Shown here: piece after piece, positions 3,851-64,000 of the stretch
How positions within the stretch are numbered: the first letter of the stretch is position 1
How the letters are laid out: each line of letters starts with the position of its first letter
Origin: Minisyncoccota bacterium
Lineage (GTDB): Bacteria > Patescibacteriota > Minisyncoccia > Minisyncoccales > RBG-13-42-11
NCBI GenBank assembly: GCA_016782605.1
Contig: JADHYE010000001.1
Location: forward strand, 11,128 to 75,127
Direction of reading: 5' to 3'
DNA length: 64,000 nt
Notes under the pieces: generated by a model
Database searches by the model: none
Told to the model about the DNA's origin: nothing
What the model saw: only the letters and a program-made list of their open reading frames with translations
Translations under genes and position numbers: made by a program

Positions 3851-3852
3851 AC

Positions 3853-3882
3853 TAATTTATTATATATCCAGAATCTTGTCAA
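3853..3882 (-). promoter_or_regulatory. sigma70-like promoter for rplJ-rplL
   Basis: TTGACA (plus 3877-3882, minus strand), 16-17 bp spacer, then ATAAAT/TAAATT. Confidence 0.45.
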
Positions 3883-3992
3883 GTGTTTCAAAAAGAGTAA
3901 GGGATCCGGTATTAAGGGCTCCCTTATGATAAACATTATACCAGGCATCTTTTAGTGACCTAATAATACGTATTTTAGAATTTTTGTCAAGG

Positions 3993-15137: not shown

Positions 15138-15270
15138 ATACCGAGTCCGCCCAAGGCGGGCGAAGGTGAAGAAGAGGTTTACCTCTTCGACTTACTTTTC
15201 TAATACCGAGTCCGCCCAAGGCGGGCGAAGGTGAAGAAGAGGTTTACCTCTTCGACTTACTTTTCTAATT
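15138..15270 (+). repeat. Family-3 hairpin-pair element present as a perfect 2 x 65-bp tandem duplication filling the nusB-rnc spacer
   Basis: The unit ccgagtccgcccaaggcgggcgaaggtgaagaagaggtttacctcttcgacttacttttctaata occurs twice with 100% identity (15141-15205 and 15206-15270). It starts right after the rnc ATG, and the last four codons and stop of nusB lie in the second unit. Confidence 0.85.
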
Positions 15271-27091: not shown

Positions 27092-27790
27092 TTACTCAGT
27101 TTTTCTCCAATCTTCTTTGGCTGAAATATCTTTTCCTTTTTCTTCATTAACTATTTCCACTCCGGAACTAGTGCCGATAATATCAGCTCCAGCTTTAATC
27201 ATCATTTCCAAATCAGCAAGAGTCCTAATAAAGCCTGCTACTTTAACCAGTATGCCGGGAGCTGATTCGCGCATTATCCTGACGTGCTTTGCTTTTTCAG
27301 CTAGTTCTGAATGGTCTAAAGGATCTTCAACCGTGGCTGTCTTAACACAAATTGCCCTAGCTTCCTTGACAATCTCTGAAGCTTTTTTAATTTCCTCGTC
27401 AGTCAAATAGCCAGAGCCGATTATCACTTTTGTCGGCAAAACAGCACAAATCTCTTTCAAATCAGACAAAACCTCGTCATATTTACCGTTCTTGAAATCA
27501 TCTATCTTCATTACCACGTCAACCTCGTCAGACCAATCTTCTTTAGCTCTCAAAACCTTTTTCATCCTGATTTCATGAGGGCTGGCTCCTGTTGGCTCAT
27601 CAATCAAAGTGGTAACCTTAACATCGCTGTCTAACAATGATTCTTTGGCTAATTTGGTGTGTTCTGGATAAACGCAAAGTCCCCGGAAACCGTATTCTCT
27701 TGTTTCCTGGCAAACCTTCTTAATCTCCTGTTCTAAAGCTCCTTTTTTAAGAAATGTCTGGTCTATTAATTTAGCTGTGTTTGGCTGCAT
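27092..27790 (-). CDS. deoC: deoxyribose-phosphate aldolase-like (DeoC family)
   Basis: 232 aa; N-terminus LIDQTFLKKGALEQEIKKVCQETREYGF resembles DeoC; TIM-barrel aldolase signature. Confidence 0.6.
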   Translation of the reverse strand: MQPNTAKLIDQTFLKKGALEQEIKKVCQETREYGFRGLCVYPEHTKLAKESLLDSDVKVTTLIDEPTGASPHEIRMKKVLRAKEDWSDEVDVVMKIDDFKNGKYDEVLSDLKEICAVLPTKVIIGSGYLTDEEIKKASEIVKEARAICVKTATVEDPLDHSELAEKAKHVRIMRESAPGILVKVAGFIRTLADLEMMIKAGADIIGTSSGVEIVNEEKGKDISAKEDWRKTE

Positions 27791-28565
27791 AATAAACGTT
27801 TTTTAATAATAAGGCGACTGTTAAGGGGCCCAAGCCTCCTGGCACTGGTGTTAAAAAATCAGCTTTGCCAGCTACGCTTTTTCTGTCCACATCCCCTACT
27901 ACTTTTTTATTCTTCAAAACAACAATGCCTCCATCAATCAAAACAACACCTTTTTTAATCATATCCCCTTTTATATAATTAGGAAATCCACAAGCTGAAA
28001 TAACAATATCAGCTGATTTAATCTCAGGGCTTTTCCTGTTTTTAAGATAACTAATTTTAATTCTCTCTTTTATAAGAGAAGATTTTAGAACATTGCCGAA
28101 AAAATCAGAATTAACCAAAGCAATAATCTTTTTACCTTTAAGGTTTTTGGATGAATCTTTTAAGGCGATAAGAATGGCCGAAATCAAAGGAGAAGAAAAA
28201 TGTGTTTTCTTCTGGAAACCGTCAACATCTTTGTGAAAATCTATCTTTTCTGTAATCTTCCTTGCTTTTAACTTAGAGGGTAATGGCAATTGGACAATGA
28301 TTCCTGCAACGTCTTTATCTTTATTCAATGCTTCAATCTGCCGCACAATCTCTTTTTCCTTAACTTTGCTGTTAAATTTAGAATAGAGAATTCCAATACC
28401 CACTTCTTCAGCCGCCCTTTTTTTGTTCCTAATAAAAAGCTCTGAAGCAGGATCTTTTCCGACTGAAATTACCGCCAGCTTTAATTTCATTCTTTCTTTC
28501 CTGATTCTTTTTTTCAAATCCGACAAGATTTTATCCGCTTTCTTTTTACCATCGAAAATTATCAT
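27771..28565 (-). CDS. folD: methylenetetrahydrofolate dehydrogenase/cyclohydrolase
   Basis: 264 aa; C-terminal TPVPGGLGPLTVALLL. Confidence 0.85.
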   Translation of the reverse strand: MIIFDGKKKADKILSDLKKRIRKERMKLKLAVISVGKDPASELFIRNKKRAAEEVGIGILYSKFNSKVKEKEIVRQIEALNKDKDVAGIIVQLPLPSKLKARKITEKIDFHKDVDGFQKKTHFSSPLISAILIALKDSSKNLKGKKIIALVNSDFFGNVLKSSLIKERIKISYLKNRKSPEIKSADIVISACGFPNYIKGDMIKKGVVLIDGGIVVLKNKKVVGDVDRKSVAGKADFLTPVPGGLGPLTVALLLKNVYYAAKHS

Positions 28566-28597
28566 AAATTGAAGATTTATTAAAATCTTAGATGAGT

Positions 28598-29872
28598 TTA
28601 AAATTTGAACTCATCGTAAATGGGAAACTTCTTGGTTATTCTTTCCACCTCGCTCTTAATCAAATTTTTAATTTTCCGGCTATCAATATTTTTAATAAGC
28701 TTGACGATAAGGCGAGTAATCTCCCTTGATTCTTTCTCTTCCAAGCCCCTAGTGGTGATTGCCGGCGTTCCCAACCTAATACCCGAAGGAAAATAAGGAG
28801 GTTTTTTATCAAAAGGAATGGCGCTTCTGTTAACGTAAATGCCAACCTTATCCAATTCGTTCTGAATTTCCTTCGAGCCAACGCTAAAAGGAGAAACGTC
28901 TATTACCATCAAATGATTATCTGTTCCCCCGCTGATTACCCTGATTCCCTGCTTCTGGAATTCATCAGCCATGGCTTTGGCATTCAGAATAATCTGTTTT
29001 TGGTACTTCCTAAAAGAGGGTTTCATTGCTTCCAAAAAGCAAACAGCTTTAGCAGCAATAACATGTTCCATCGGCCCACCCTGGATACCAGGAAAAACAG
29101 CTTTGTCGATTTTTTGCGCTAAATTTAATTTGCTCTTAAGATTAAATCTGTCTTTAATTTTGCAAAGAATCAGTCCTCCGCGAGGGCCCCTAAGAGTTTT
29201 ATGAGTAGTCGTTGTCACGATATCGCACCAGGGGAAAGGATTGGGATGAACACCAGCAATAACCAAACCGGCGATATGAGCGATATCAGCCATTAAATAT
29301 GCTTTAGCTTTATCAGCAATCTTCCTGAACGCTTTAAAATCAAGAGTTCTTGAATATGAGGTTGTGCTGACAATGATTAATTTCGGCTTGAACTTTAAAG
29401 CTATTTTTTTCACTTCTTTCAAATCAATCTTTTCCGTTTCCCGATCAACCCCGTAATGGGAAAAATTATACAATTTTCCGGAAAAATTAACCGGCGAGCC
29501 GTGCGTCAGATGACCACCAGCCGACAAATCAATGCCCAGTACTCTATCCTTATAGTCCAACAACGCTAAATAAACGGCTGCATTCGCCTGGGAACCAGAA
29601 TGGGGCTGAACATTGGCATGTTCTGCCCCAAACAACTTCTTGGCCCTTTCTATGGCTGTCTGTTCAACCTCATCAATGAATTCATTGCCGCTGTAATACC
29701 TTTTATATGGATAACCTTCAGAATATTTATTGCTCAAAGGCGTGCCCATAACAGACAAGACCTCAGGACTGGCGTAATTTTCCGAGGGAATCAAAACAAG
29801 GCCCTGTTTCTGGCGCAAAATCTCCTTTTTAACCAAGTTATATATTTTAGAATCTGATTTTAAAAGCTTCAT
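28598..29872 (-). CDS. glyA: serine hydroxymethyltransferase
   Basis: 424 aa; PLP-lysine motif TTTTHKTLRGPRGG. Confidence 0.9.
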   Translation of the reverse strand: MKLLKSDSKIYNLVKKEILRQKQGLVLIPSENYASPEVLSVMGTPLSNKYSEGYPYKRYYSGNEFIDEVEQTAIERAKKLFGAEHANVQPHSGSQANAAVYLALLDYKDRVLGIDLSAGGHLTHGSPVNFSGKLYNFSHYGVDRETEKIDLKEVKKIALKFKPKLIIVSTTSYSRTLDFKAFRKIADKAKAYLMADIAHIAGLVIAGVHPNPFPWCDIVTTTTHKTLRGPRGGLILCKIKDRFNLKSKLNLAQKIDKAVFPGIQGGPMEHVIAAKAVCFLEAMKPSFRKYQKQIILNAKAMADEFQKQGIRVISGGTDNHLMVIDVSPFSVGSKEIQNELDKVGIYVNRSAIPFDKKPPYFPSGIRLGTPAITTRGLEEKESREITRLIVKLIKNIDSRKIKNLIKSEVERITKKFPIYDEFKF

Positions 29873-29889
29873 TTCACTTCCCTAATTTT

Positions 29890-30408
29890 TTAAGATTTTT
29901 CTCGAATTTTTCTTTCCAAGGTTACAAAGTTATATTTATAAGAATTATCTTTATCAGGGTTATTTTCAATTCTTCCAATTTCTATCCAATCATTCCAATC
30001 AAATTCTGGGAAATAAGCATCAGCTTCGAACTCTCCCTCAATTAAAGTTAGATACATTCTATCGGCTAATAGTAAAAATTGACGATAAATTGACACTCCG
30101 CCACAAATCATTACCTCATCAAAATTTTTGGCAGCTTCTAACGCCCCTTCTATTGAATGAGTAACTAAGCAATCAGGTGGAATAAAATTTTTATCCAAAG
30201 TTAAAATAATATTAGTCCGCCCTGGTAACGGCTTACCGATGGATTCAAAAGTTTTTTGCCCCATAATTACTGGTTTCCCCATAGTCAGTTGACGAAAATG
30301 TTTCATATCGGCCGGCAAATTCCAAGGCAACTTATTTTTGATACCAACTACCCAATTATTACCTACGGCTGCAATTATTGAAATTAGACACTTGTCCTTT
30401 TTTTTCAT
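29890..30408 (-). CDS. folA: dihydrofolate reductase
   Basis: 172 aa; ISIIAAVGNNWVVGIKNKLPW.. Confidence 0.85.
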   Translation of the reverse strand: MKKKDKCLISIIAAVGNNWVVGIKNKLPWNLPADMKHFRQLTMGKPVIMGQKTFESIGKPLPGRTNIILTLDKNFIPPDCLVTHSIEGALEAAKNFDEVMICGGVSIYRQFLLLADRMYLTLIEGEFEADAYFPEFDWNDWIEIGRIENNPDKDNSYKYNFVTLERKIREKS

Positions 30409-30487
30409 TATATGATATTATATCCTAAGGTTAGAAAATATACAACGTTAAAAATCTTATTTTTTAAATTTAGATTAAATTCTTATT

Positions 30488-31030
30488 ATGAATAAAAAAC
30501 ACAAATGCATTATATTAAACTATTCAGAGCTTAAAAGGGTTGTTGATGCCCACAAAACTTTAGAGCATAAAATTATCTGCACTGTTGGTTCCTGGGATAT
30601 GCTTCATATAGGGCACTTGCGTTATCTTATTAAAGCGAAGGGACAAGGCGATGTGCTCGTTGTAGGAGTGGATAATGATAGGGGAATAAAGTTGTATAAA
30701 AAGAATGAGTTGAGACCTGTTATCCCCCAAGAAGAAAGAATGGAAATGCTTAGTTATCAAGACTGTGTTGACTACGTTACCTTGATAGAGGATATAGATG
30801 ATAACGGCGAATGGCAGTATGAATTAATAAAGACAATAAAACCCCATCTTTTTGTCACAACCACGGACAGCTACCCAGAAGAACAAATTAAAGATATTGG
30901 GCTACACGTTGATAATGTTTTAATTTTGCCAAGACAGGCAGAAAACACTTCGACTACACAAATTATAGAAAGAATGATAAAAAAACATTTAGAAGTAATG
31001 CTCTCTAATATAACAAAGAAAGGAAAATGA
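30488..31030 (+). CDS. cytidylyltransferase-superfamily nucleotidyltransferase (RfaE domain II / HldE C-terminal-like)
   Basis: 180 aa; GSWDMLHIGH HxGH motif and LVVGVDND segment. Confidence 0.6.
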   Translation: MNKKHKCIILNYSELKRVVDAHKTLEHKIICTVGSWDMLHIGHLRYLIKAKGQGDVLVVGVDNDRGIKLYKKNELRPVIPQEERMEMLSYQDCVDYVTLIEDIDDNGEWQYELIKTIKPHLFVTTTDSYPEEQIKDIGLHVDNVLILPRQAENTSTTQIIERMIKKHLEVMLSNITKKGK

Positions 31031-31467
31031 AAAAGTTTGTTAATATAAAAAATGCAAGACGCGGAGAATATCGAAAAGTAATAAAGGAAATAGCCCTAAA
31101 GGGCGAATGTCCTTTCTGCCCAGAAAATTTCAAATATCACAAAAAACCAATCTTCAAACGAAAGGAAGATTGGTTTTTAACAAATGATAGCTGGCCCTAT
31201 AAAAATACCAGTTGCCATCTTATTATCTTGGGGAAAAAACATAAAGAAAAATTTCAAGAATTAACAAAAAAAGATTTAGAATCTGTAGCTTACTTAACTC
31301 GCTGGGCAATTAAAAAATACAAAATTAAAGGAGGTGGATTGGCGATAAGATTTGGCAATACGGATTTTACTGGAGCTTCCGTTACTCATATTCACTTCCA
31401 CTTAATTTCACCAAAAATAGATAAAAAAACAAAATACGCAAAAACAGTGAATTTTCCTATAGGATAA
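31027..31467 (+). CDS. HIT-superfamily protein (GalT-like branch) with CPFC zinc-site-like motif
   Basis: 146 aa; HIHFHLI histidine-triad; ECPFCPENF; 4-bp overlap with the upstream nucleotidyltransferase. Confidence 0.55.
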   Translation: MKKFVNIKNARRGEYRKVIKEIALKGECPFCPENFKYHKKPIFKRKEDWFLTNDSWPYKNTSCHLIILGKKHKEKFQELTKKDLESVAYLTRWAIKKYKIKGGGLAIRFGNTDFTGASVTHIHFHLISPKIDKKTKYAKTVNFPIG

Positions 31468-31469
31468 AT

Positions 31470-32291
31470 TCAAACAGCTATCTCCCCTTTAATCGGTGGA
31501 TAAGGATTATATCCCTCAAGTTGAAAATTTTCATAATCAAAATCAAAGATGTTTTTTATTTTAGGGTTAAGAATCATTTTAGGTAAAGGTCTGGGTTCGC
31601 GGGTTAATTGAAGTTTAACTTGTTCAATATGGTTGAGATAAAGATGGGTGTCAGATAAGGTATGCACAAATTCATAGGCTTTTAATCCAGTAACCTGTGC
31701 CATCATCATCAACAATAAAGAATAAGAAGCGATATTAAAGGGGATACCAAGGAAAACGTCGCAGCTCCGCTGAAAAAGATGCAAAGATAATTTTCCCTGT
31801 ACGTGAAAAAATTTAAAAAAACAGTGGCAAGGAGCAACAAAAACTTTATCAACATCTTCCGGATCCCAAGAGGTAACAACTAAACGTCGGGAATCAGGAA
31901 AATTTTTAAGCTCTTCAATAACATTTGATATTTGGTCAATTACTCTACCGTCTCGAGTTTTCCAACAACGCCATTTCTCGCCGTAAATCGGACCCAGTTC
32001 ACCAGGAGGCAAATTATACTTAGCCGTAGCCTCTGGCATTGCCCACTCATCCCAAATTGTCACTCCATGGTCTTGCAAATACTTTACATTGGTATCTCCT
32101 CGTAAAAACCATAATAATTCATAAATAATTGATTTTAAGGACATCTTTTTTGTGGTAAGTAAAGGGAAACCATCATCCATTTTAAATCGCATCTGATAAC
32201 CACAAACAGCAATATTCCCTATGCCTTGTGGGTCGTTTTTTCTTTCTCCATTTTCTAAAACATATTTTAATAAATCTAAATACTGCTTCAT
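31470..32291 (-). CDS. thyA: thymidylate synthase
   Basis: 273 aa; active-site PCH region [10 protein letters not shown]. Confidence 0.9.
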
Positions 32292-32297
32292 GATTTT

Positions 32298-33149
32298 TTA
32301 TTGTAAAAGATTTTGAGGAATATGTATAATTTCGACCCCAGCTGCCTCTAAGGTTTTTCTCCCATCAAGATTTGAAGCTCCTTCAGAAAAATAGACTTCC
32401 TTAATCCCAGCCCAAGCAATAAGTTTTGCACACAATGAACAGGGAAAATGAGTAAGATAAAGAAATAAACCCTCTAATTTAATTCCGTTTTTAGCGGATT
32501 CGGAAATAAGTTTTTGCTCGGCATGAATAGTTGGAGAAAAATCTTGTTTCTCCCCGGCTTGAAAAAAATCTCTTACTGAGCCAACCTGATAAGGAGTACT
32601 ATCGTTTGGTACCCCTTGGTTATAAGAACGAGCTATTATTTTTTTATTCTTTAGCAAGACCGCTCCAATTTGACGCCACCAATCACTACTTTTTTGAGCT
32701 TCTTTATAAGCTTCTTTCATTATTTCTATGTCAAAATTATCCGTCGAAACCTTAATATCGTCTATCGGTAAATCGGCCACAACTTTTTCCTTATCCCATC
32801 GAAGAAAAACTGATTCCCATTCTATGTTTTCTCCTTTTAAATATTTTTCTTCCAAATTTCGGGAAATTTCGTCTTGGATAAGAATGATTTCTTTGCCCTT
32901 CAGCTCTCCAATGCTGTTTTTGGAAAGAATTGAAACATTTTTAAAATCGAATTTTTCTAATAAATCCTTCACTGTATTTACATCTAAAGAAGCAATATCC
33001 TGTTTAATATCAGAAAGTTCTTTTTGAAAAGTTTCATCAATGATATATATATTAGAAATTCTATCTAATTTTTTTTTAAAAAAATCTAAATAACCCTTAT
33101 GGATTACAGGAATATGAATAATGAGATTTTTATTTCTCATAAAATACAA
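32298..33149 (-). CDS. dCMP/cytidine deaminase-domain protein with about 140-aa N-terminal domain of unknown function
   Basis: 283 aa; zinc motifs HAEQ and PCSLCAKLI in the C-terminal half. Confidence 0.7.
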   Translation of the reverse strand: MYFMRNKNLIIHIPVIHKGYLDFFKKKLDRISNIYIIDETFQKELSDIKQDIASLDVNTVKDLLEKFDFKNVSILSKNSIGELKGKEIILIQDEISRNLEEKYLKGENIEWESVFLRWDKEKVVADLPIDDIKVSTDNFDIEIMKEAYKEAQKSSDWWRQIGAVLLKNKKIIARSYNQGVPNDSTPYQVGSVRDFFQAGEKQDFSPTIHAEQKLISESAKNGIKLEGLFLYLTHFPCSLCAKLIAWAGIKEVYFSEGASNLDGRKTLEAAGVEIIHIPQNLLQ

Positions 33150-43456: not shown

Positions 43457-43741
43457 TCATTTCAAAATTGATTTTACTTTTAAATAATCTTCTTTTTTAT
43501 CGGGAAACGATTCTATTAATTTCCTGCTGCTCCCCTTTCCTTTTGGCTCATCTTTCCTTAATACGTTTTCAACTTTGATCGAATGGCTGGTCGGCTCAAT
43601 GCCGGAAATATTCACTTCTTTCAGTTTTTCAAAATAATCCAAAATCGAAGAAAGCTCTTTCTGATATTTTTCAATTTCTTGATCAGTTAAGCCCAATCTG
43701 GCAAGTTTAGCTATATGTTGTACTTCTTCTTTAGAAATCAT
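43457..43741 (-). CDS. gatC: Asp/Glu-tRNA amidotransferase subunit C
   Basis: 94 aa GatC-like. Confidence 0.8.
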   Translation of the reverse strand: MISKEEVQHIAKLARLGLTDQEIEKYQKELSSILDYFEKLKEVNISGIEPTSHSIKVENVLRKDEPKGKGSSRKLIESFPDKKEDYLKVKSILK

Positions 43742-44790
43742 CTTGGCGGTTCCAAATATTCTGTTTCAACTAATACTTCGTGAAGCTGATCAAGGTTTTC
43801 CAATACCATGCCTGCTCCCCTAACCACAGCTGTTGTCGGGTCTTCAATAACCTTGGTCGGAATCTTGGTTTCTTTTTGAATTAGAGTAGCCAACCCCCTT
43901 AAAAGAGAGCCGCCCCCTGCCATCTGAATCCCTGAAACCATGATATCAGCCAGTAATTCTGGCGGAGTTTCCTCGACAGCTGTTTTCGTTTCGGCAATTA
44001 TCTGTTTTATTGATTTTTCCAAAGCTTTTCTGATATCCTCGTCAGAAACTAGAATTTCCTCGGGCAATCCCGTTACCAAATTCCTCCCCCTCATTGGCAA
44101 CTGCTTTTTCTCTTTTAAAGGATAAGCTGAACCTATTATTATTTTAAGCATTTCTGCTGTTCTTTCGCCGATCAGCAGCTTGTATTCATCTTGGGCGAAC
44201 TGAATAATGTCCTGGTTTAATCTGTCTCCGGCAATCCGGAGAGTTTTTGACAAAACTATTCCTCCCAGAGAAATCACGGCAATATCCGTTGTCCCTCCGC
44301 CAATATCAACTATAAGGTTTCCTCCTGCTTCTTGTATGGGTAAACGAGCGCCCAAAGCTGCAGCCATGGGTTCCTCAATAATGAATACCTCCCTGGCACC
44401 TGCGTTCTTAGCTGCATCAGAAACAGCTTTTTTCTCAACTTCTGTTACTCCGCAGGGAATGCCGATAATCACCCTGGGCCTTGGATTCAAAAGAAACTTT
44501 TTCTGGTGCGCTTTATCAATAAAATACTTTAACATCTGCTCTGTTACTTCAAAATTAGAAACAACGCCGGAAACCAAAGGCCTGGTGGCCACAATATGGG
44601 CTGGCGTACGGCCTACCATTTTCTTTGCTTCATCTCCAATAGCCAAAACCTGGCCTGTTTTCTGATTTATGGCAACAACCGAAGGCTCAGTAATAATGAT
44701 TCCCCTACCCCGAACGTAAACCCGAGAATTAGCTGTTCCTAAATCAATAGCAATATCTTCTGAAAGTATTCTCCAGAGTTTATTAAACAT
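43738..44790 (-). CDS. mreB: rod-shape protein MreB
   Basis: 350 aa actin-fold ATPase; DLGTANSRVYV. Confidence 0.9.
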   Translation of the reverse strand: MFNKLWRILSEDIAIDLGTANSRVYVRGRGIIITEPSVVAINQKTGQVLAIGDEAKKMVGRTPAHIVATRPLVSGVVSNFEVTEQMLKYFIDKAHQKKFLLNPRPRVIIGIPCGVTEVEKKAVSDAAKNAGAREVFIIEEPMAAALGARLPIQEAGGNLIVDIGGGTTDIAVISLGGIVLSKTLRIAGDRLNQDIIQFAQDEYKLLIGERTAEMLKIIIGSAYPLKEKKQLPMRGRNLVTGLPEEILVSDEDIRKALEKSIKQIIAETKTAVEETPPELLADIMVSGIQMAGGGSLLRGLATLIQKETKIPTKVIEDPTTAVVRGAGMVLENLDQLHEVLVETEYLEPPR

Positions 44791-48845: not shown

Positions 48846-49847
48846 TTATCTTTTATTCATTATGCTCTTTTTGTAAACATCAAGGTTTTCCAAAACTACG
48901 CCCGTTCCTTTGGCCACGCAAAGCAAAGGGTCTTCAGCCAGAAAGCAAGGGACGCCTGTTTCCCGGGAAATCATTTCTGTAATATTTCTTAACAATGCGC
49001 CGCCACCAGAAACGATCATGCCTTTGTCGATTATGTCGGCTGACAATTCAGGCGGCGTATCCCTTAATACAGTTTTAATAACATGGATAATATCTCCCAA
49101 GATTTCAGAGATCGCTTCGGCAATTTCGTTGGAAGAAATTTTAACTGTCCGGGGCAAACCGGAAACCAAATCCCTGCCGCGAATTTCTATAAATCTTGGC
49201 TCTTTTTCCGGTATAGCTGTACCTATTTTCATTTTAACCTCCTCTGCTGTCTGTTCTCCGATAGCTAAATTGTATTTTTTCTTTATATAATCTGAAATGG
49301 CAAAATCCATTTTGTCTCCGCCGATCCTGATAGAATTACAAGTGACTATTCCCCCCAAAGATATGACAGCTATTTCAGAAGTCCCGCCGCCGATATCAAC
49401 AATCATATTGCCAGAACAGGAATTAATCGGAATGCCAGCGCCAATGGCTGCTAAAATCGGCTCTTTTGCCAAATATGCCTGTTTGGCACCCGCATTCAAA
49501 GCAGCTTCAATTACCGCTCTTTTCTCGGTTGAGGTAATGCCAGCTGGCACGCCTATCATTAATTCAGGTTTTAAGAAACGCCAAAAACCGCATACTTTAT
49601 CAATAAAATGCCTTAGCATTGCCTGAGTCACCCTGAAATCAGCAATCACCCCGTCTTTTAAAGGACGATAAACCCTAATTGTGTCTGGAGTACGACCGAT
49701 CATTTCTTTTGCTTCTTCCCCGATTGCCAGAATTCTGTTCTCTTCTAGGGCAACAGCAACAACTGAAGGCTCTTGCAAAACCACTCCTTTACCGGGAAGA
49801 AAAACCAAAGAATTGGCAGTACCCAAATCTATACCTATTTTTCTCAT
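48846..49847 (-). CDS. second MreB-like actin homolog
   Basis: 333 aa; IGIDLGTANSLVF; paralog of the 43738..44790 gene. Confidence 0.8.
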   Translation of the reverse strand: MRKIGIDLGTANSLVFLPGKGVVLQEPSVVAVALEENRILAIGEEAKEMIGRTPDTIRVYRPLKDGVIADFRVTQAMLRHFIDKVCGFWRFLKPELMIGVPAGITSTEKRAVIEAALNAGAKQAYLAKEPILAAIGAGIPINSCSGNMIVDIGGGTSEIAVISLGGIVTCNSIRIGGDKMDFAISDYIKKKYNLAIGEQTAEEVKMKIGTAIPEKEPRFIEIRGRDLVSGLPRTVKISSNEIAEAISEILGDIIHVIKTVLRDTPPELSADIIDKGMIVSGGGALLRNITEMISRETGVPCFLAEDPLLCVAKGTGVVLENLDVYKKSIMNKR

Positions 49848-52265: not shown

Positions 52266-53570
52266 ATGACCAAAAAGACAAAAACAATACTGTTTTTAGC
52301 CTGCTTACTTGCATTCATCCTGTTAGCTCCCTCAATAGTCCTGTACTCCCAAGGATACAGAATTGATTTTAATCCTCCAGAAGGCGGAAAAATGATTACC
52401 CAAACCGGAGGCCTTTTTTTGAAAGTCACGCCCAAACAAACAGATATTTATATTGACGGCAAACCTAAAAAAAGAACTGATTTTCTATTCGGTTCTGTTT
52501 TAATTGAAAACCTCATTCCTGGAAAGTACAAAGTAGAAATCAAAAAATTAACCAGCCAGGAAGAATACTATCCCTGGGAGAAAAACCTGGAAATACGGGA
52601 AAAACAGGTAACTGAAGCCAAGAACGTTGTCCTTTTCCCGAAAAACGTTAATTTCAACGTCTTATCAACCAACGTAGAACAGCTTTGGCTTTCTCTGGAC
52701 CAAAAGAAACTAATCTTAAAGGAAAATGAAAAAGCCAGCTGGTCCTTAAAGCTTTACGACCCGGAAAAGAATATAAAAAGCTATTTAATAAGCGACGAGG
52801 ATTTCTTCACGAAAGAACCCCAATTAATCAATCTGAAATTCTCGGGAGACTCAAGAAGTATTAATCTGGAAGTCAGCATAAAAGAAGCAATACAATCTTT
52901 TTCTCTGCAACTTGACCAAGCAAAACCAACTTTAAATAAAAAAACAGCAGCCACAACGACAACTGGAAACGCTGCTATCTCGCAACAAGCAGGCAATGAT
53001 ATATATTATCTGGACAGTTTCGGCTATCTTTTCAGGAATAAAGAAAAGCTGGCAGAAACTCCCTTTCAAACAAAACAAGAAACAGAATATGCTTTAGATA
53101 TTTTCAACGGCAACATATTCTTAAAAGAAAACGACAAACTGTACAAATTCAATTACAATCTGAAAACATTTGAACATTTCTTTGACGGAATCAATATCTT
53201 AAAGCTTTCTCCGGACAATAAAAAACTGCTTTACGCTTCAAACAATGAAATGTGGATTCTTTTCCTGGAAGACAAAATCGACCAGCCGCAGAAAAAATCA
53301 GGAGAGAAAATCTTTTTAATCCGCTTATCAGACCAAATCACAAGCATCTCCTGGATAAACGACAATTACCTGGCTTTTCTTGCCGGCAATACCGTTAAAA
53401 TCATTGAAATAGACGACAGGGACAGAATAAACGTTATAGACATCTTTGAAACAAAAAACCTCCCTCAAGAAGGAAGCATTAATGAAATGTCCTGGAACAG
53501 GTTTGACAATAAAATCTATCTCTTGGACGAAAACGGCTATTTATATAGCTCTAACGTCCTGCTCCCGTAA
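52266..53570 (+). CDS. hypothetical secreted or anchored protein (N-terminal TM, PEGA-like segment, beta-rich C-terminal region)
   Basis: 434 aa; no family recognised. Confidence 0.4.
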   Translation: MTKKTKTILFLACLLAFILLAPSIVLYSQGYRIDFNPPEGGKMITQTGGLFLKVTPKQTDIYIDGKPKKRTDFLFGSVLIENLIPGKYKVEIKKLTSQEEYYPWEKNLEIREKQVTEAKNVVLFPKNVNFNVLSTNVEQLWLSLDQKKLILKENEKASWSLKLYDPEKNIKSYLISDEDFFTKEPQLINLKFSGDSRSINLEVSIKEAIQSFSLQLDQAKPTLNKKTAATTTTGNAAISQQAGNDIYYLDSFGYLFRNKEKLAETPFQTKQETEYALDIFNGNIFLKENDKLYKFNYNLKTFEHFFDGINILKLSPDNKKLLYASNNEMWILFLEDKIDQPQKKSGEKIFLIRLSDQITSISWINDNYLAFLAGNTVKIIEIDDRDRINVIDIFETKNLPQEGSINEMSWNRFDNKIYLLDENGYLYSSNVLLP

Positions 53571-54269
53571 TTTGATTTTCTTTTTAAAAGCTTCCCAGCC
53601 CATTTCTCCGGTATTGGCTATAACGCAAACTTCCTTGAACTGGCAATAACGACACTGCCAATTATCGGGGTAATCCGATAATCTGTCGGGAATAACGTTC
53701 TTATCAATCTTCTTTCTAATACCAGCCAAAAAGTCCAAAAGAGAAAGGGCGCATTTTTTATCGTATTTTACGACAAAATCCTTCAGCTGCTGGTTATCTT
53801 TATTAACGTAAAGCAGTATTCCTTTAGGAATCTTAAAATAATGGAGATAAAGCTGAAGCTGAGCAATATTTTCCTCCTTTGGCTCAGTTAACTTACCAAA
53901 AATCATGCTGTTCATACTTTTAATATCCAAAACATATAGTTCCTTGCCATCGCTGATTATGGCATCAGCCCTGCCTGAAATCAGTTCCTGAGGAGGAATA
54001 TTAACTTCGGCAGCCACCACATGGATTTCCCTGGTGCTCAAAAGCGGCTTCATAATAAGCTGATGGATGTGGTCGCCATGGTCAAACAGCCTTAGAATAT
54101 TGGCCTCCATCTCCTTTCTGGGAACATTCTTGAACTTAAAAAACAAAGCTCTGCCGCATTTGCCTGCGTCAGTAATATAAAAGTGATGCTGCTCTTTATC
54201 TCTTTGCCTGTCCAAATAGAATTTATCGATTATATCTTTAAGAAACATAGAGTTTATCTCTTCTGCCAC
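53541..54269 (-). CDS. Cas4-like PD-(D/E)xK nuclease with 4Fe-4S cysteine cluster, stand-alone
   Basis: N-terminal Cys (ITDAGKCGRALFF); GDHIHQ; D..ELYVLDIK; QLQLYLHYF; C-terminal CRYCQFKEVC (Cx2Cx5C); overlaps the rpsI stop by 16 nt. Confidence 0.6.
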   Translation of the reverse strand: MAEEINSMFLKDIIDKFYLDRQRDKEQHHFYITDAGKCGRALFFKFKNVPRKEMEANILRLFDHGDHIHQLIMKPLLSTREIHVVAAEVNIPPQELISGRADAIISDGKELYVLDIKSMNSMIFGKLTEPKEENIAQLQLYLHYFKIPKGILLYVNKDNQQLKDFVVKYDKKCALSLLDFLAGIRKKIDKNVIPDRLSDYPDNWQCRYCQFKEVCVIANTGEMGWEAFKKKIKLREQDVRAI

Positions 54270-54739
54270 TGAGGAGCACGACGAGCGCGCTTCAATCCGA
54301 ACTTCTTTCTTTCCCTCATCCTCGGGTCTCTTTTCAAAAAACCAGCTTTTTTCAACTGTTTCCTCAATTCTGGATCGAATAAAACTAAAGCGCGAGTTAA
54401 ACCGTGCCTGACAGCTTCAGCCTGGGAAGTCGTCCCTCCCCCTTTAACTTTTACTGAAACCTGAAATTTGTCAGAATAATCAGTCAAAATCAAAGGAGAA
54501 AAAATAATACGCTGAAGGTATTTTGTCGGAAAATAATTTTCAAAAGTCCTTGTATTTATTAAAAAGGTCTTTTCTTTTTGAACAGAAATTCTCACCCTGG
54601 CTACAGCTGTCTTTCTCCTGCCTATGCCCTCAAAATACCTGGCTACTTTAGGTTTAACTGTTACTTTGGCAGTTTTTTTAGCTGGAGCTTTTTTGACTTT
54701 CTTTACTGTTTCTTTTTTTGTTTTTTTAGCCTTTGGCAT
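54254..54739 (-). CDS. rpsI: 30S ribosomal protein S9 with lysine-rich N-terminal extension
   Basis: C-terminal GGGTTSQAEAVRHGL..KKFGLKRARRAPQWQKR; start taken at MPKAKK; the track's MDVDIRG extension is derived from the repeat element. Confidence 0.9.
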   Translation of the reverse strand: MPKAKKTKKETVKKVKKAPAKKTAKVTVKPKVARYFEGIGRRKTAVARVRISVQKEKTFLINTRTFENYFPTKYLQRIIFSPLILTDYSDKFQVSVKVKGGGTTSQAEAVRHGLTRALVLFDPELRKQLKKAGFLKRDPRMRERKKFGLKRARRAPQWQKR

Positions 54740-54740
54740 A

Positions 54741-54872
54741 CCCCGTATATCAACATCCAAGCATTTTCAATGCGAAAACACTCTGAAGGCTGTTTTTATT
54801 TAATAATATATTCAACATAATAACTTTGTTTGATATTTTAATACGAAGTATTCTGGATGTTGTATTACAGGG
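54741..54872 (+). mobile_element. Family-1 element, copy 7 (flanked by CATA; variant right end ..ttacaggg)
   Basis: abuts the rpsI ATG; its last 8 bp supply the final codon and TAA stop of rplM. Confidence 0.85.
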
Positions 54873-55215
54873 CATATTTTAATCTTTTAATCATTTTTGC
54901 TCTTAATTTATTCTTGGGCAGCATGCCAAAAACCGCTTTCCTCAAAACTTCTTCCGGATTCTTCTCAAATAACTTCTCCAAAGTTATCTCCTTCAAGCTT
55001 CCCAGATATCCAGAATGACGGTAGTATTTCTTCTGTTTGGCTTTTTTGCCGGTGAATTTCAACTTATCAACGTTTTGGACAATAACAACATCGCCGATAT
55101 CTTTGTACGGCGCAAAGTCTGCTTTCTGTTTCCCCCTCAAAAGCAAAGCTATTTCAACAGCCAGTCTGCCTAAAACCTTATCAGTAGCGTCTATTTTGTG
55201 GGTTTTGCGTTCCAT
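54865..55215 (-). CDS. rplM: 50S ribosomal protein L13
   Basis: 116 aa L13-like. Confidence 0.85.
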   Translation of the reverse strand: MERKTHKIDATDKVLGRLAVEIALLLRGKQKADFAPYKDIGDVVIVQNVDKLKFTGKKAKQKKYYRHSGYLGSLKEITLEKLFEKNPEEVLRKAVFGMLPKNKLRAKMIKRLKYAL

Positions 55216-55568: not shown

Positions 55569-56364
55569 TTTTTACTTTTTTGCTTACTGCTTTCTTTTCT
55601 TTTTTCGGCTTCTTGGCCGCTTTTTTCTTTTCTTTGTCTTCCGGTTCTACAGATGCAGCTTTCGGCTGGAAAGCTGTAGCCAGCAACGAAAAGTGGCTAA
55701 TCAAAATTTCCGAAGCCTGATAAAATGCCTGTTCCGGATCGATAATGCCGTCTGTTTCAATTTCCAGAAACAATCTGTCAAAGTCAGTTCTTTCTCCGAC
55801 ACGCATATTCTCAACCCTGGAACTTACCCTTTTTACAGGAGTAAAGCTGGCATCCAGCAGAATAGCTCCTATCTCTAATTTTTCAGGCATGGAGCCTGCT
55901 GTTTTTTTCCTTGTTTCGCGGCTGGAATAGCCAATTCCCTTTTCAATCTGGATTTCCATTTCCAGTTCAGCGGATTTTGAATTCAAAGTGGCAATATGGC
56001 AGTTTTTATTTACCAATTCCACTTGGCTGGGCAGCTTGAAATCAAAGCCCTTCACTGCTTTTTCTCCCTTAACTTTCAGGGTCGCTTTCTGTGGCTCGTC
56101 GCTAAAAAGCTTAAATCTCAATTGCTTCAAATTAAGCATTATAGTGATAACGTCTTCTAAAACTCCTGAAATCGTTGAGAACTCATGGGAAACTCCCTTG
56201 ATTTTGACTTGGGTAATAGCAGCTCCTTCAAGCGAAGAAAGCAAAACCCTTCTCAAAGAATTGCCGACGGTTACTCCGTAGCCAGGACGCAAAGCTTCTA
56301 TTTCAAAAACAGCTTTGTTCCCTTCTTTTTTAACTATTTTGGGAGCGTGAGGTAAATTAATCAT
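55534..56364 (-). CDS. rpoA: RNA polymerase alpha subunit (N-terminal domain plus lysine-rich tail; no recognisable alpha-CTD)
   Basis: 276 aa; alpha-NTD motifs; C-terminal KEKKKAAKKPKKEKK..; overlaps rplQ by 35 nt. Confidence 0.85.
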   Translation of the reverse strand: MINLPHAPKIVKKEGNKAVFEIEALRPGYGVTVGNSLRRVLLSSLEGAAITQVKIKGVSHEFSTISGVLEDVITIMLNLKQLRFKLFSDEPQKATLKVKGEKAVKGFDFKLPSQVELVNKNCHIATLNSKSAELEMEIQIEKGIGYSSRETRKKTAGSMPEKLEIGAILLDASFTPVKRVSSRVENMRVGERTDFDRLFLEIETDGIIDPEQAFYQASEILISHFSLLATAFQPKAASVEPEDKEKKKAAKKPKKEKKAVSKKVKNEKKKKREKTK

Positions 56365-56433
56365 ATAGCGAGTCCCGCAACAACGGGACGAAGGTTAAGA
56401 AGAGGATGAATTCCTCTTCGATTTATTTTGAGT
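56365..56433 (+). repeat. Family-3 hairpin-pair element filling the rpsD-rpoA spacer
   Basis: atagcgagtcccgcaacaacgggacgaaggttaagaagaggatgaattcctcttcgatttattttgag; starts right after the rpoA ATG and contains the rpsD stop. Confidence 0.7.
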
Positions 56434-58603: not shown

Positions 58604-59905
58604 CTAATCAATGACCAGATTGAATTTAATCTTACTTAGGTCTTCTGGCACCTTATTGACCCAGAATGGCCAAAACTTGACGCTGGCCCTGGTAATCTTA
58701 GGATAGTTTTCCAAGAAGAGCTTAGCCTCGAGCAAAGACTTTCCTTTTAAGGCGTTTTTAAAGCTGAAAATGTCAACGTCAGCATAGATTTTAGCTGAAA
58801 TTGTCAAAGAAACAGCAATTTTGCCGGTCTCTAAATCAACATCGTCAATAGAATAATTTATTTTCAAACTTTCCTCATAAAGCTTTTTATCCTGGGGAAT
58901 TTGAAAAGTAATCGCTTCTTTAACGTAATTCCTAATATCTTCTTTCTTAAACACTACGACTTGGCATTGCGCTTTCACCTGATAATTAAAGTCTTTTGCT
59001 TCTGTTTCAGCAGAAGTCAAAGAAAAGTTCTCAATAATTTCTGTCTGGATGCTGTCTGGCAAATAATCGAACTTGGAAGAAATCGCTTCTGACTGCAGTT
59101 CTTTCTGCAGCAGTTCATTGCATTCTTTCTCCGCTTGTTTTGTTAAAGTTTCTTCAGCTTGAGATAAATCCTTTTCTGTCACTTTAGCAATTTCTTCATG
59201 GAAGCCGCCTGCCATTGCTTCAAAAGATTCGCCGTAGAATTTAGTATACCTGTCTGTGCCGGCAAATCCCGGTACGGAGAACTTGGTCAAAGCGATATTG
59301 TATTCTTCGCCAGGCTGATCTGCCACCACTTTTACATCTATTTCTCCTGGAACAAGCTTTCCTTTCTCATAAGTACCTCCAGGAACAGTAACTTTGATTG
59401 GCGTGCGGAATACCTTTCCGTCAGCTGAAACAAAACGGGTAGTGGCTATTAAAACCTGCTGCGAAGTTGAATAGGCATTGTACACTTTTATTGTGCCTTG
59501 CGCCTTCTCCTCTTTCATAATTTTACCGGAAGCCGGAAAAGTCTGAACAATGGTTTTTTCTTTCTGAAGCGTTTCTGCCGGAATAATCTTTAAAAGAGAA
59601 TCAATAGCTGTTGCGTTTTTGTCGATATTCGTTTCTTCTATAAGATTAAAAACTTCTGTCTCCGGCCAAACGCTTATTTCAGCTTTAGACAAAGCAATGT
59701 AGCAAAACGCTCCCAATAAAACCAAAAAAAGCAAAGAAAAAGTCAAACCCTTTTTAAAGGGTGGATTAGGAGCTTTTTTAGGAAAACCCCACAAAGGAAC
59801 CTTGGGCTTTTGCTCTAGTTCTATCTTTACTTCTGGCTCTTTGTGCTCCTCCTTTTTTTTCTCTTTTTTCGAAGGAGGGAAAACGTCTATTACTTTTTTG
59901 CTCAT
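58604..59905 (-). CDS. hypothetical protein with Lys-rich N-terminus and one TM helix
   Basis: 433 aa; no family recognised; the ATG is flush with Family-2 copy B. Confidence 0.4.
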   Translation of the reverse strand: MSKKVIDVFPPSKKEKKKEEHKEPEVKIELEQKPKVPLWGFPKKAPNPPFKKGLTFSLLFLVLLGAFCYIALSKAEISVWPETEVFNLIEETNIDKNATAIDSLLKIIPAETLQKEKTIVQTFPASGKIMKEEKAQGTIKVYNAYSTSQQVLIATTRFVSADGKVFRTPIKVTVPGGTYEKGKLVPGEIDVKVVADQPGEEYNIALTKFSVPGFAGTDRYTKFYGESFEAMAGGFHEEIAKVTEKDLSQAEETLTKQAEKECNELLQKELQSEAISSKFDYLPDSIQTEIIENFSLTSAETEAKDFNYQVKAQCQVVVFKKEDIRNYVKEAITFQIPQDKKLYEESLKINYSIDDVDLETGKIAVSLTISAKIYADVDIFSFKNALKGKSLLEAKLFLENYPKITRASVKFWPFWVNKVPEDLSKIKFNLVID

Positions 59906-62973: not shown

Positions 62974-63720
62974 TTAAGCTTCTGTTAATATTTTGCAGCC
63001 CTTTTCCGCTACAACAATAGTATGTTCAAAATGGCAGGATAAAGAATTATCAGCAGTTTTATAAGCGTGCCCGTCAGAAGCCAATTTGATTTTCCAGTCG
63101 CCTACGGCCAGCATCGGCTCAATGCAGAAAACCATTCCTTCTTTTATTTCAGGACCGCTCCTTCTTTTTCCGTAATTCAATATTTGCGGCTCTTCGTGAA
63201 CTTCTCTGCCAATTCCATGACCGCATAAGTCCTGTATAACGCTGAATCCCTGCGACTCAGCAAATCTCTGGATAGTATTGCCAATATCGCCAAAAGTATT
63301 GCCCGGCCTGACTTTTTTCAACCCTCTCTTTAAAGCTTTCTTCGTTGTGCGGATAAGCCTAGAAACTTCAGAGCTAACCTTGCCGACGGGCAAAGTCACT
63401 GCCATATCAGTATGAAAACCCTTATAAAGCATTCCTAAATCAAGGGAAATTATCTCTCCCTCTTTCAAGACACGATCTGAAGGAATAGCATGGACTATTT
63501 CCTCGTTTATCGAAGTACACAAACAATTAGGATAACCATCGTGTCCCTTAAAAGAACATTTTCCTCCGGATTTTAAAATCAGACTCTCGCTGAGCCTGTC
63601 TAATTCTTTAGTGGTAATTCCTGGCTTCACTTTCTTCTCCAACTCCTGCATAATCTTTGCCAGAATTTTACCGCCTGCTGCCATTATCTTAATTTCCTCT
63701 TTTGTTTTTATCGGAATCAT
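62974..63720 (-). CDS. map: methionine aminopeptidase type I
   Basis: 248 aa; metal-ligand pita-bread fold residues. Confidence 0.9.
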   Translation of the reverse strand: MIPIKTKEEIKIMAAGGKILAKIMQELEKKVKPGITTKELDRLSESLILKSGGKCSFKGHDGYPNCLCTSINEEIVHAIPSDRVLKEGEIISLDLGMLYKGFHTDMAVTLPVGKVSSEVSRLIRTTKKALKRGLKKVRPGNTFGDIGNTIQRFAESQGFSVIQDLCGHGIGREVHEEPQILNYGKRRSGPEIKEGMVFCIEPMLAVGDWKIKLASDGHAYKTADNSLSCHFEHTIVVAEKGCKILTEA

Positions 63721-63829: not shown

Positions 63830-63970
63830 GTGGAAAAGAAGCTTTAGCTTCTTTGACCAAGCCGAGCTTCCGAAAGAGTCAAAGAGATAAATCTCTTTTC
63901 CATCTTTGTTTTCGCTATGCGAAAACTTGATAAACGAAGATGAAGAAGAGGATTTGTCCTCTTCGCTTAC
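63830..63970 (+). repeat. two Family-3-type hairpin modules upstream of map, in plus orientation (GAAGCTTTAGCTTC, AAAGAGATAAATCTCTTT, GAAGAAGAGGATTTGTCCTCTTCGC)
   Basis: reverse-complement relatives of the rplJ/rplK leader hairpins at 3671-3727. Confidence 0.5.
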
Positions 63971-64000
63971 AGAGCTTTTAAAATATCTTTAAAAACATCT

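Follow-up and report, generated by a model that had tools for sequence, protein, structure and literature searches.

A Cas4-family nuclease gene outside CRISPR loci at the end of a ribosomal-protein gene cluster in Nealsonbacteria

The 64 kb of DNA analysed here (the window), from a genome of the Nealsonbacteria (CPR), carries a gene that, judged by its sequence and predicted fold, is an intact single-domain Cas4-family nuclease combining a PD-(D/E)xK/RecB-type active site with a four-Cys Fe-S module. On the best reading of its position, sequence identity and dN/dS, it is a chromosomal solo-Cas4 of the Nealsonbacteria and related Paceibacteria that has been inherited vertically, and we consider it rather probable that this housekeeping protein processes DNA ends independently of CRISPR, a physiological role that we infer. 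In one large CPR clade, a solo-Cas4 behaves as a core housekeeping gene whose fixed place is the last in an operon of ribosomal-protein genes. The locus reveals no new kind of system, as solo-Cas4 in CPR has been known since 2017, when its grouping with DPANN was also published (PMC5704561), and the gene of the window is an ordinary, well-conserved case.

The gene and its immediate surroundings comprise the following features.

53541..54248, minus strand: coding sequence of the Cas4-family (solo-Cas4) nuclease, beginning at the favoured ATG and encoding 235 aa before the stop
53541..54269, minus strand: the same reading frame from the alternative upstream start, a GTG at 54269, 242 aa
54254..54760, minus strand: rpsI (ribosomal protein S9; Ribosomal_S9, 3e-43), immediately upstream of the Cas4-like gene
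54865..55215, minus strand: rplM (ribosomal protein L13; Ribosomal_L13, 3e-41)
53458..53477, minus strand: terminator-like hairpin with T-run, ~65 nt beyond the stop codon of the Cas4-like gene, by consensus scan only
52266..53570, plus strand: gene for a 434-aa protein with hydrophobic N-terminus, convergent to the Cas4-like gene, of which its 3' end covers 30 nt

An earlier note on this DNA had described the 242-aa ORF from the GTG, which overlaps the rpsI ORF by 16 nt, and had offered a later ATG with a 5-nt gap as the alternative; both forms are present, the in-frame ATG at 54248 following the rpsI stop as TAA-ACTCT-ATG. Because nearly all homologues are 225-235 aa long, with starts that match the later ATG position, the protein made is more probably that of 235 aa, and the true start is probably the ATG at 54248 rather than the GTG at 54269. 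Upstream of rplM lie rplQ, rpoA, rpsD and then two ORFs that are rpsK and rpsM by comparison with an orthologous locus (L001), the Cas4-like gene being the final cistron of this rpsM-rpsK-rpsD-rpoA-rplQ-rplM-rpsI cluster. The consensus scan gave no terminator-like site between rpsI and the Cas4-like gene, and a transcript spanning the ribosomal-protein genes and the Cas4-like gene would probably end at the hairpin downstream of the latter. Given the 5-nt gap, the uninterrupted junction and the position of the hairpin, co-transcription of the two genes is plausible in this genome, as had been proposed, but a tight coupling to rpsI is not obligatory: in strains of ~95% nucleotide identity, a 400-nt insert with an opposite-strand ORF separates rpsI from the Cas4-like gene, and a 44%-identical CPR orthologue has no ribosomal-gene adjacency while keeping the p434-mreB-holB-frr side.

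The 434-aa gene adjoins the Cas4-like gene even in the locus of that orthologue. It has no match in Pfam, PHROG or PADLOC, and as it has no recognisable domain and belongs to a generally syntenic block, we claim no functional tie between the two genes. Neither an integrase, a terminase nor any other phage gene was found in the window, and housekeeping genes stand on both sides of the Cas4-like gene, which lies outside CRISPR-cas loci and outside mobile elements, as is characteristic of solo-Cas4. No helicase ORF, such as would be paired with the nuclease domain in an AddB/RecB-type helicase-nuclease, is adjacent to it. An intergenic repeat gave no match in Rfam at permissive thresholds.

The identity of the protein as a Cas4/AddB-type PD-(D/E)xK Fe-S nuclease, which the earlier note had read from its motifs, is upheld by HMM search, conserved residues and predicted fold. 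Both Pfam models suggested for that search scored above their gathering cutoffs, PDDEXK_1 with 29.9 bits (cutoff 22) and Cas_Cas4 (PF01930, DUF83) with 29.2 bits (cutoff 22.7), the latter placing the protein in the Cas4 family. The PDB entry 4ic1, SSO0001 Cas4 of Sulfolobus solfataricus, was matched with an E-value of 2.9e-9 by the single sequence and of 1.8e-21, over the full length and as the best PDB match, by the family profile. Chance similarity would fall far short of these scores. All of the motifs that had been quoted, including the N-terminal Cys and Cx2Cx5C, are found in the translation, which reads DAGKCGRA, GDHIHQ, GRADAII...ELYVLDIK, QLQLYLHYF and CRYCQFKEVC (the Cx2Cx5C) in turn. 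In an alignment of 40 homologues with identities down to 23%, and in the numbering of the 235-aa form, C199, C202, D95, K110, Q130, Y134, G58 and G92 are invariant, while at least 90% of the sequences have C31, C208 and H62. These residues map to the DNA as follows.

54156..54158, minus strand: codon of Cys31, N-terminal ligand of the predicted Fe-S cluster, aligning with the Cys of 'VRCPRR' in 4ic1
54063..54077, minus strand: GDHIH motif (G58-H62), aligning with GDILH of SSO0001
53964..53975, minus strand: G92-R-A-D95, with the RecB-nuclease motif II aspartate
53919..53927, minus strand: D108-I-K110, (D/E)xK catalytic motif, position 108 being D or E among the homologues
53847..53861, minus strand: Q130-L-Q-L-Y134, QhxxY motif
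53625..53654, minus strand: C199-x2-C202-x5-C208, C-terminal Cys triad of the predicted Fe-S cluster

The His that corresponds to H62 is reportedly a metal ligand in the SSO0001 structure. All elements of a RecB-type catalytic site (D, (D/E)xK and QhxxY) are thus conserved, as are the four Cys, one N-terminal and three in Cx2Cx5C, of an Fe-S cluster that is itself a prediction. The AF2 model of the protein has a pLDDT of 95.3, and its top structural match is again 4ic1 (E 1.8e-11, TM 0.57-0.65), followed by MGME1, lambda exonuclease, type I-C Cas4, ACE1, Pcal_0546, Exo5 and AdnAB. A compact 235-aa protein with so confident a predicted structure is a candidate for biochemical study. SSO0001 and the window protein align over their full length and have in common the four Cys, GDxxH, D, ExK/DxK and QxxxY; however, their identity is only ~23%, the toroidal decamer and the 5'->3' ssDNA exonuclease activity are features of SSO0001, and the model of the window protein suggests an additional C-terminal helix at residues ~218-234. 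The PD-(D/E)xK exonuclease core is also found in AddB/AdnAB, lambda exonuclease, MGME1 and Exo5, and the Fe-S 'staple' is common to AddB, Exo5 and Cas4. Unlike AddB/AdnAB, the window protein is a lone 235-aa domain with neither a helicase domain nor a partner gene, and unlike lambda exonuclease and MGME1 it has a Cys cluster.

Within this family, the sequence comparisons set the protein closer to the Cas4-domain exonucleases of phages and of the solo kind than to the Cas4 of CRISPR systems, and it is not of the CRISPR type. PHROG 1706 and 1990 (phage Cas4-domain exonuclease) were the top-scoring profiles with 112.9 and 98.8 bits, 2-2.5 times the score of the CRISPR Cas4 models, which reached at most 48.5 bits; TIGR00372, the CRISPR Cas4 equivalog, gave 46.7 bits, under its cutoff of 65. 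Domain, motifs and fold are shared with CRISPR-associated Cas4 (type I-C, Cas4-Cas1-Cas2, PDB 8d3l/7mi4), but the window gene has no cas1, cas2 or array nearby, and a PAM-selecting partnership of the kind known from CRISPR Cas4 is impossible without Cas1-Cas2. The search for cas genes covered, with Pfam, the 64 window ORFs of at least 100 aa taken as real genes, outside which lay a few genes such as rpsK, rpsM and 62974-63720 and every ORF below 100 aa, so that a short cas2 would be missed; none of the 64 proved to be a cas gene. No CRISPR-like array was present in the window, and the stand-alone status that the earlier note had assigned to the gene, with no cas1, cas2 or array in 64 kb, holds for the window at this scope. 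Arrays alone, not cas genes, were also sought in 83 orthologous loci (L001-L083, ~849 kb), again with none found; k-mer candidates in L009 and L017 were simple tandem repeats that lacked spacers. The orthologous loci are flanked by housekeeping genes.

The position behind rpsI, whose conservation the earlier note had proposed to check, is kept across the clade. Among 72 species-level loci with enough upstream sequence, 69 have rpsI upstream on the same strand, in the order rpoA-rplQ-rplM-rpsI-gene, and the gap to rpsI, approximate since it derives from tblastn coordinates, is at most 30 nt in 29 of these 69. At least 165 species-representative genomes carry the gene, and species-level orthologues at the same post-rpsI position are 59-98% identical. 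Its median identity is 70%, whereas in the same loci HolB reaches 44% and RpsI, RplM, RplQ and RpoA reach 60-69%, a comparison in which the Cas4-like value is inflated relative to its neighbours because the 80 loci were chosen as the best Cas4-like matches. Against three relatives, dN/dS was 0.02, 0.02 and 0.07, equal to that of MreB and RplM, whereas HolB and the 434-aa neighbour gave 0.09-0.16; the gene is under strong purifying selection. As mreB, holB and frr are just as syntenic, the position is no evidence for a functional link to the ribosome.

Solo-Cas4 is over-represented in CPR and DPANN and mostly inherited vertically (Hudaiberdiev et al. 2017, PMC5704561), and the window gene resembles the genes of that survey in its lack of a CRISPR-cas locus, its small CPR genome, its DPANN kin, its vertical inheritance and purifying selection. 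It differs in its dN/dS, which at 0.02-0.07 falls at the bottom of, or beneath, the range of 0.06-0.18 reported there for the medians of cas4 genes. The survey gives no gene context for the CPR solo-Cas4 (PMC5704561), whereas the Nealsonbacteria/Paceibacteria orthologues are here seen to be fixed behind rpoA-rplQ-rplM-rpsI. The nearest cellular relatives include proteins of Woesearchaeota and Nanoarchaeota (DPANN), although the neighbour-joining tree carries no bootstrap support and gives a rough picture only. Further relatives with 34-39% identity sit on uncultured phage/MGE contigs, and cultured phages encode relatives at 24-31% identity. Genes of DNA metabolism, among them those for PolB, ThyA and methyltransferases, surround the phage relatives. 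Although the phage Cas4-domain exonucleases (PHROG 1706, 1990; MGE-Cas4) are its top profile match, the window gene is not carried on a phage, prophage or plasmid but is chromosomal and syntenic among housekeeping genes. A scan of IMG/VR with patterns of the family returned a single distant relative (25%), which suggests that the close family is not viral.

The fixed position, together with conservation and dN/dS like those of ribosomal proteins and MreB, favours a CRISPR-independent, constitutive role in DNA maintenance over arms-race defence. As the last cistron of a ribosomal-protein cluster, the solo-Cas4 would probably be expressed constitutively as part of the cluster's transcript. Judging from the Cas4 proteins that have been characterised and from lambda exonuclease and MGME1, it would most likely bind DNA ends and degrade one strand in a metal-dependent manner and in the 5'->3' direction; an archaeal solo-Cas4, once purified, was found to be an Fe-S protein that cuts DNA with the help of metal ions (PMC12501428). 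Such end processing would serve recombinational repair or DNA turnover in minimal genomes, independently of CRISPR. Literature searches for the gene in CPR or Nealsonbacteria turned up the phylogenomic work of 2017 and, from a single Nealsonbacteria genome, a cas4 linked to CRISPR; they gave no data on activity, expression or phenotype for this protein or a CPR orthologue. More tentatively, and with greater doubt than belief, the solo-Cas4 of Nealsonbacteria/Paceibacteria could be an indispensable end-resection enzyme driven by the ribosomal operon, perhaps captured from a phage Cas4-domain exonuclease, which takes the place of RecBCD/AddAB-type machinery where minimal CPR genomes are possibly devoid of it; if so, it would be the core nuclease of a stripped-down recombination/repair pathway shared with DPANN archaea.

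Defence is the alternative that the phage relatives bring to mind, namely a stand-alone or trans-acting anti-phage/anti-plasmid nuclease that degrades invading linear DNA, perhaps with unlinked partners, as modelled by ACE1 with pAgo and by the proposal for DPANN solo-Cas4 beside R-M genes. The 34-39% identical phage/MGE genes imply that the family takes part in virus-host biology and, being the nearest non-cellular relatives, could point to a role against foreign DNA; PADLOC returned Cas4 models throughout and one weak DruK match, ACE1 is among the structural neighbours, and such roles have been suggested for some DPANN solo-Cas4 (PMC5704561). We nevertheless regard defence as unlikely, since in 69 of 72 species the gene keeps its place among the same housekeeping genes, no defence-type neighbour was seen in the window or in the orthologous loci inspected, and the close family is absent from the viral contigs of IMG/VR. 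Defence genes are typically patchy, clustered in islands and fast-evolving, whereas this gene evolves like ribosomal and cytoskeletal genes.

A nuclease for nucleotide salvage, digesting imported or host-derived DNA for an organism without de novo nucleotide synthesis, seems improbable as well. CPR generally lack de novo nucleotide synthesis and retain Com/T4P DNA-uptake genes, the window holds a dTMP/folate salvage cluster, strong constitutive expression would fit a metabolic enzyme, and DNA uptake has been proposed as a nucleotide source (PMC10633639; Nealsonbacteria preprint); however, Tn-seq in Saccharibacteria found the com genes dispensable for growth, which argues against imported DNA as the nucleotide source there (PMC10633639). 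Neither a nucleotidase nor a transporter is adjacent to the gene. In addition, enzymes of the Cas4 type act on DNA ends and are not known as bulk DNases.

That the protein is a genuine Cas4 of CRISPR adaptation, acting in trans on behalf of a cas1-cas2/CRISPR locus in another part of the genome, is very unlikely. Its Pfam family is that of CRISPR Cas4, only 64 kb of the genome is in view, and at least one Nealsonbacteria genome carries a type V system; yet that genome has a separate cas4 of its own inside the cas operon (cas4-cas1-cas2; Nealsonbacteria preprint), CRISPR-associated cas4 is almost always transferred along with cas1-cas2 (PMC5704561), and CRISPR-Cas occurs in ~2.4% of Parcubacteria/Microgenomates organisms, a figure that the Nealsonbacteria paper takes from an earlier survey, as against a gene present in at least 165 species-representative genomes. 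The TIGR00372 score below the equivalog cutoff and the lead of the phage exonuclease profiles weigh in the same direction.

A role in RNA or ribosome biology, such as rRNA or mRNA processing, is suggested by the operon position and the short gaps behind rpsI, and some PD-(D/E)xK enzymes do act on RNA, but it is most improbable, as the close structural and sequence relatives are all DNA nucleases, the 44%-identical orthologue has lost the ribosomal adjacency, near-identical strains carry an unrelated insert at the junction, and the phage relatives lie among PolB, ThyA and methyltransferase genes.

As a minor observation, the dTMP/folate salvage cluster of the window is a dense one, with thyA, folA, glyA, folD and a dCMP deaminase gene.

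The protein encoded downstream of rpsI is near certainly a member of the Cas4 family. It scores above the Pfam cutoffs for both PDDEXK_1 (29.9 bits, cutoff 22) and Cas_Cas4/DUF83 (29.2 bits, cutoff 22.7), and the closest solved structure by sequence is the Sulfolobus Cas4 SSO0001 (PDB 4ic1; E 2.9e-9 with a single-sequence query), which a 40-homologue profile aligns end to end at E 1.8e-21; the second-ranked solved relative is the Pcal_0546 Cas4 (4r5q). An alignment of 40 sequences, with identity down to 23%, contains the complete Cas4 signature, namely the N-terminal cysteine and Cx2Cx5C, GDxxH, the motif-II aspartate, (D/E)xK and QhxxY; G58, G92, D95, K110, Q130, Y134, K150, P187, C199 and C202 are invariant, and C31, H62, E81, G143, Y147 and C208 are kept in at least 90% of the sequences. 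The AlphaFold2 model from this alignment has a mean pLDDT of 95.3, and a Foldseek search of the PDB puts SSO0001 at the top (E 1.8e-11), ahead of MGME1, lambda exonuclease, the Cas4 from type I-C Cas4-Cas1-Cas2 complexes, ACE1 (a Cas4 associated with Argonaute), Pcal_0546, Exo5 and the nuclease domains of AdnAB. As HMMs, solved structures, conserved residues and predicted fold agree, the Cas4/AddB-type PD-(D/E)xK assignment of the earlier note is correct.

Judged by its sequence, the protein is evidently not the CRISPR kind of Cas4. It reaches 46.7 bits with TIGR00372, the NCBIfam equivalog for CRISPR Cas4 (cutoff 65), and at most 48.5 bits with the PADLOC Cas4 models, and it matches the phage 'Cas4-domain exonuclease' families PHROG 1706 and PHROG 1990 at 112.9 and 98.8 bits. 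The 64 kb had been described as free of cas1, cas2 and CRISPR arrays, and none was found: a Pfam scan of 64 window ORFs of at least 100 aa judged to be real genes, with a few of that size left out, contained no cas gene (a cas2 below 100 aa would escape), and Tandem Repeats Finder, a direct-repeat search and a k-mer spacing scan detected no CRISPR-like array in the window. The Pfam-matched ORFs are housekeeping genes, including ribosomal proteins, dnaE, gyrB, aminoacyl-tRNA synthetases, gatA/B, two mreB, holB, frr, rnc, rnhB, nusB/G and a thyA-folA-glyA-folD-dCMP-deaminase cluster; 9 of the 64 have no Pfam match.

The ORF is as previously read, with 242 aa from a GTG start (53541..54269, minus strand) and a 16-nt overlap with the stop-proximal end of rpsI, or with a later in-frame ATG at 54248, 5 nt past the rpsI stop (...CAG TGG CAG AAG AGA TAA ACTCT ATG). 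The 235-aa product from this ATG seems the likelier form, since nearly all of 120 listed homologues are 225-235 aa long and their aligned starts coincide with it; residue positions are given for this form.

Features flanking the Cas4-like gene in the window
54254..54760, minus strand: rpsI, ribosomal protein S9 (Pfam Ribosomal_S9, E 3e-43)
53477-53458, minus strand: terminator-like hairpin and T-run, about 65 nt beyond the Cas4-like stop

Ahead of rpsI, Pfam annotation gives L13, L17, RpoA and S4. Because the 5-nt gap is too small for a promoter, a terminator scan found no terminator-like site between the two genes in the window and the hairpin lies downstream, we infer, as the economical solution, that rpsI and the Cas4-like gene are co-transcribed here. 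At its N-terminus, the window RpsI has about 40 additional Lys-rich aa, MDVDIRGMPKAKKTKKETVKKVKKAPAKKTAKVTVKPKVA... (54640-54760, minus strand), encoded by about 130 nt that fail to align with three related strains (L001, L002 and L004), which are elsewhere 94-97% identical. On the other side, a conserved protein of 434 aa, hydrophobic at its N-terminus (52266-53570, plus strand), is encoded convergently with a 30-nt overlap; it has no match in Pfam, PHROG or PADLOC.

Among database matches, a hypothetical protein from Candidatus Nealsonbacteria bacterium RBG_13_38_11 ranks first (99%), and other matches in Nealsonbacteria, Parcubacteria and Minisyncoccales are annotated as 'Dna2/Cas4 domain-containing protein' or 'PD-(D/E)XK nuclease family protein'. 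When each GTDB species was represented by a single genome, 165 genomes were found to encode a relative. Among the best 80 of these (59-98% identity), tblastn of the window neighbours revealed a near-universal order of rpoA-rplQ-rplM-rpsI-Cas4-like, the convergent 434-aa gene and mreB-holB, so that the neighbourhood is conserved in related genomes: rpsI lies upstream on the same strand in 69 of the 72 loci having at least 700 nt upstream, with gaps, estimated from tblastn coordinates, of at most 30 nt in 29 loci, 31-150 nt in 20 and more in 20. The Cas4-like protein has a median identity of 70%, biased upward by the ranking of loci on this match, against 60-69% for RpsI, RplM, RplQ and RpoA, 77% for MreB, 44% for HolB and 46% for the 434-aa neighbour. 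Its dN/dS (NG86) against three relatives is 0.021, 0.018 and 0.067, compared with 0.009-0.035 for MreB, 0.03-0.09 for RplM, 0.09-0.16 for HolB and the 434-aa gene, and medians of 0.06-0.18 for cas4 genes in a 2017 survey (PMC5704561). The gene is therefore under at least as much constraint as solo-Cas4 typically is, in the manner of a core gene. In the closest pairs (53541-54248 against L001 and L004), its dS of 0.25-0.38 is about twice the 0.12-0.20 of its neighbours at very low dN, which could reflect lower codon constraint, local recombination or short-gene noise.

The link to the ribosomal-protein operon is not obligatory. Two assemblies with a 99% identical Cas4-like protein and about 95% nucleotide identity to the window carry an insertion of about 400 nt with an opposite-strand 68-aa ORF in the spacer (L001 8619-9014, L002 2028-2423), and a third, at 98% protein identity, has about 156 nt (L004 5829-6000), where the window has 5 nt (54249-54253). 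In addition, the CPR orthologue P0273 (44% identity) has a divergent CAP-domain gene in front of it and no ribosomal genes in its vicinity; downstream follow the convergent neighbour, its N-terminal domain 46% identical to the 434-aa protein of the window, and mreB-holB-frr-rseP, the pairing being kept even at this distance. Thus, the co-transcription that the earlier note deemed probable stands as the economical reading for the window, and the adjacency reflects clade-wide synteny and probably convenient constitutive expression, and is no evidence for a ribosome-related function. The spacer is an insertion hot spot, with up to 2.4 kb in other species, and at one locus (L017) the rpsI 3' end is tandemly duplicated (45 nt x2.7).

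Searched exhaustively with HMMER, 1.84 billion cluster representatives gave 2794 proteins at E up to 1e-3, 506 of them up to 1e-10. Cluster and contig look-ups placed cellular relatives in Woesearchaeota (47%), Nanoarchaeota and Bipolaricaulota, and phage or mobile-element relatives at 34-39% identity. One of the latter (P0133) directly follows phage-encoded SHMT and ThyA, beside PolB and many small co-directional ORFs; two lie within long runs of small unannotated ORFs, one accompanies an integrase and an N6/N4 methyltransferase, and one a terminase. Cultured phages encode 'Cas4-domain exonucleases' at 24-31% identity, and a family-pattern scan found the close family essentially absent from IMG/VR. 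In an approximate NJ tree that has no support values, the Nealsonbacteria family groups with other CPR and a Woesearchaeota sequence, phage sequences being interleaved further out. This matches published work, in which many CPR genomes encode solo-Cas4, some grouping with DPANN homologues, and genes of the solo-Cas4 kind are enriched in small genomes with their function still to be characterised (PMC5704561).

Given the intact Cas4-type active site and cysteine module, the predicted Cas4-like fold, the strong purifying selection, the stable chromosomal position and the lack of CRISPR context in the window, the most likely role is CRISPR-independent housekeeping DNA end processing in recombinational repair or DNA turnover, at roughly even chances; identity and role taken together are moderately probable. 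By analogy with characterised relatives, the protein would act as a metal-dependent nuclease on DNA ends, probably 5'->3', and its Fe-S module may have a structural or a DNA-binding part; in purified form, one archaeal solo-Cas4 is an Fe-S DNA nuclease dependent on Mn2+/Mg2+ (PMC12501428). A defence nuclease, suggested by the phage kinship and by the R-M contexts of DPANN solo-Cas4, is unlikely, as the gene keeps a fixed place among housekeeping genes and its dN/dS is low. Salvaging nucleotides from DNA that is imported or comes from the host would suit CPR auxotrophy, but it is equally doubtful, com genes being dispensable in Saccharibacteria Tn-seq (PMC10633639). CRISPR adaptation in trans is very improbable, as CRISPR-Cas is reported in only ~2.4% of Parcubacteria/Microgenomates, and a role with RNA or the ribosome, to which the synteny lends no evidence, is just as hard to credit. 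The earlier interpretation is upheld, refined in start codon, non-CRISPR kind and operon link. CPR bacteria are already known from the literature to carry solo-Cas4, and the protein is in GenBank as hypothetical or Dna2/Cas4-domain; its near-universal placement at the rpoA-rplQ-rplM-rpsI tail in Nealsonbacteria and relatives, and a constraint equal to that of ribosomal proteins, have apparently not been described explicitly until now. Both sharpen the question of a housekeeping nuclease in minimal genomes and leave the overall picture unchanged.

An intergenic repeat of about 60 nt also recurs in the window and in related genomes. It consists of TATACCGAG, a variable stem-loop with compensatory changes, and CGAAGGTGAAGAAGAGG-loop-CCTCTTCG.

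Copies of the intergenic repeat
15133-15262, window
56361-56425, window
63907-63971, window
3812-4321, related locus L009
3165-3229, related locus L007
2742-2806, related locus L044

A near-perfect 65-nt tandem pair lies between rnc and nusB, a single copy between rpoA and rpsD, and L009 has a 57-nt x4.2 array plus two further copies in its rplM-rpsI spacer; the repeat is mostly antisense to the genes on either side. The core 17-mer with at most 2 mismatches has 4 real matches in the window and none in 100 window shuffles, and RNAalifold, given 7 sequences only, predicts 19 pairs, of which 6 show compensatory changes. The repeat matches no Rfam family; it could be REP-like or else represent a small structured RNA.

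An ORF of 433-436 aa, conserved and with no Pfam match, lies between alaS and infA-rpmJ-rpsM (window 58604-59905, minus strand; L001 3435-4745; L003 2501-3811), near where secY is expected in the typical operon order. Two MreB paralogues occur within 5 kb in this small-genome CPR bacterium (43738-44790 and 48846-49847, minus strand). Finally, the compact dTMP/folate cluster at 27771-33149 comprises folD, glyA (SHMT), folA (DHFR), a cytidylyltransferase-like gene, a HIT gene, thyA and a dCMP-deaminase-domain protein; phage-encoded SHMT and ThyA stand directly ahead of P0133.
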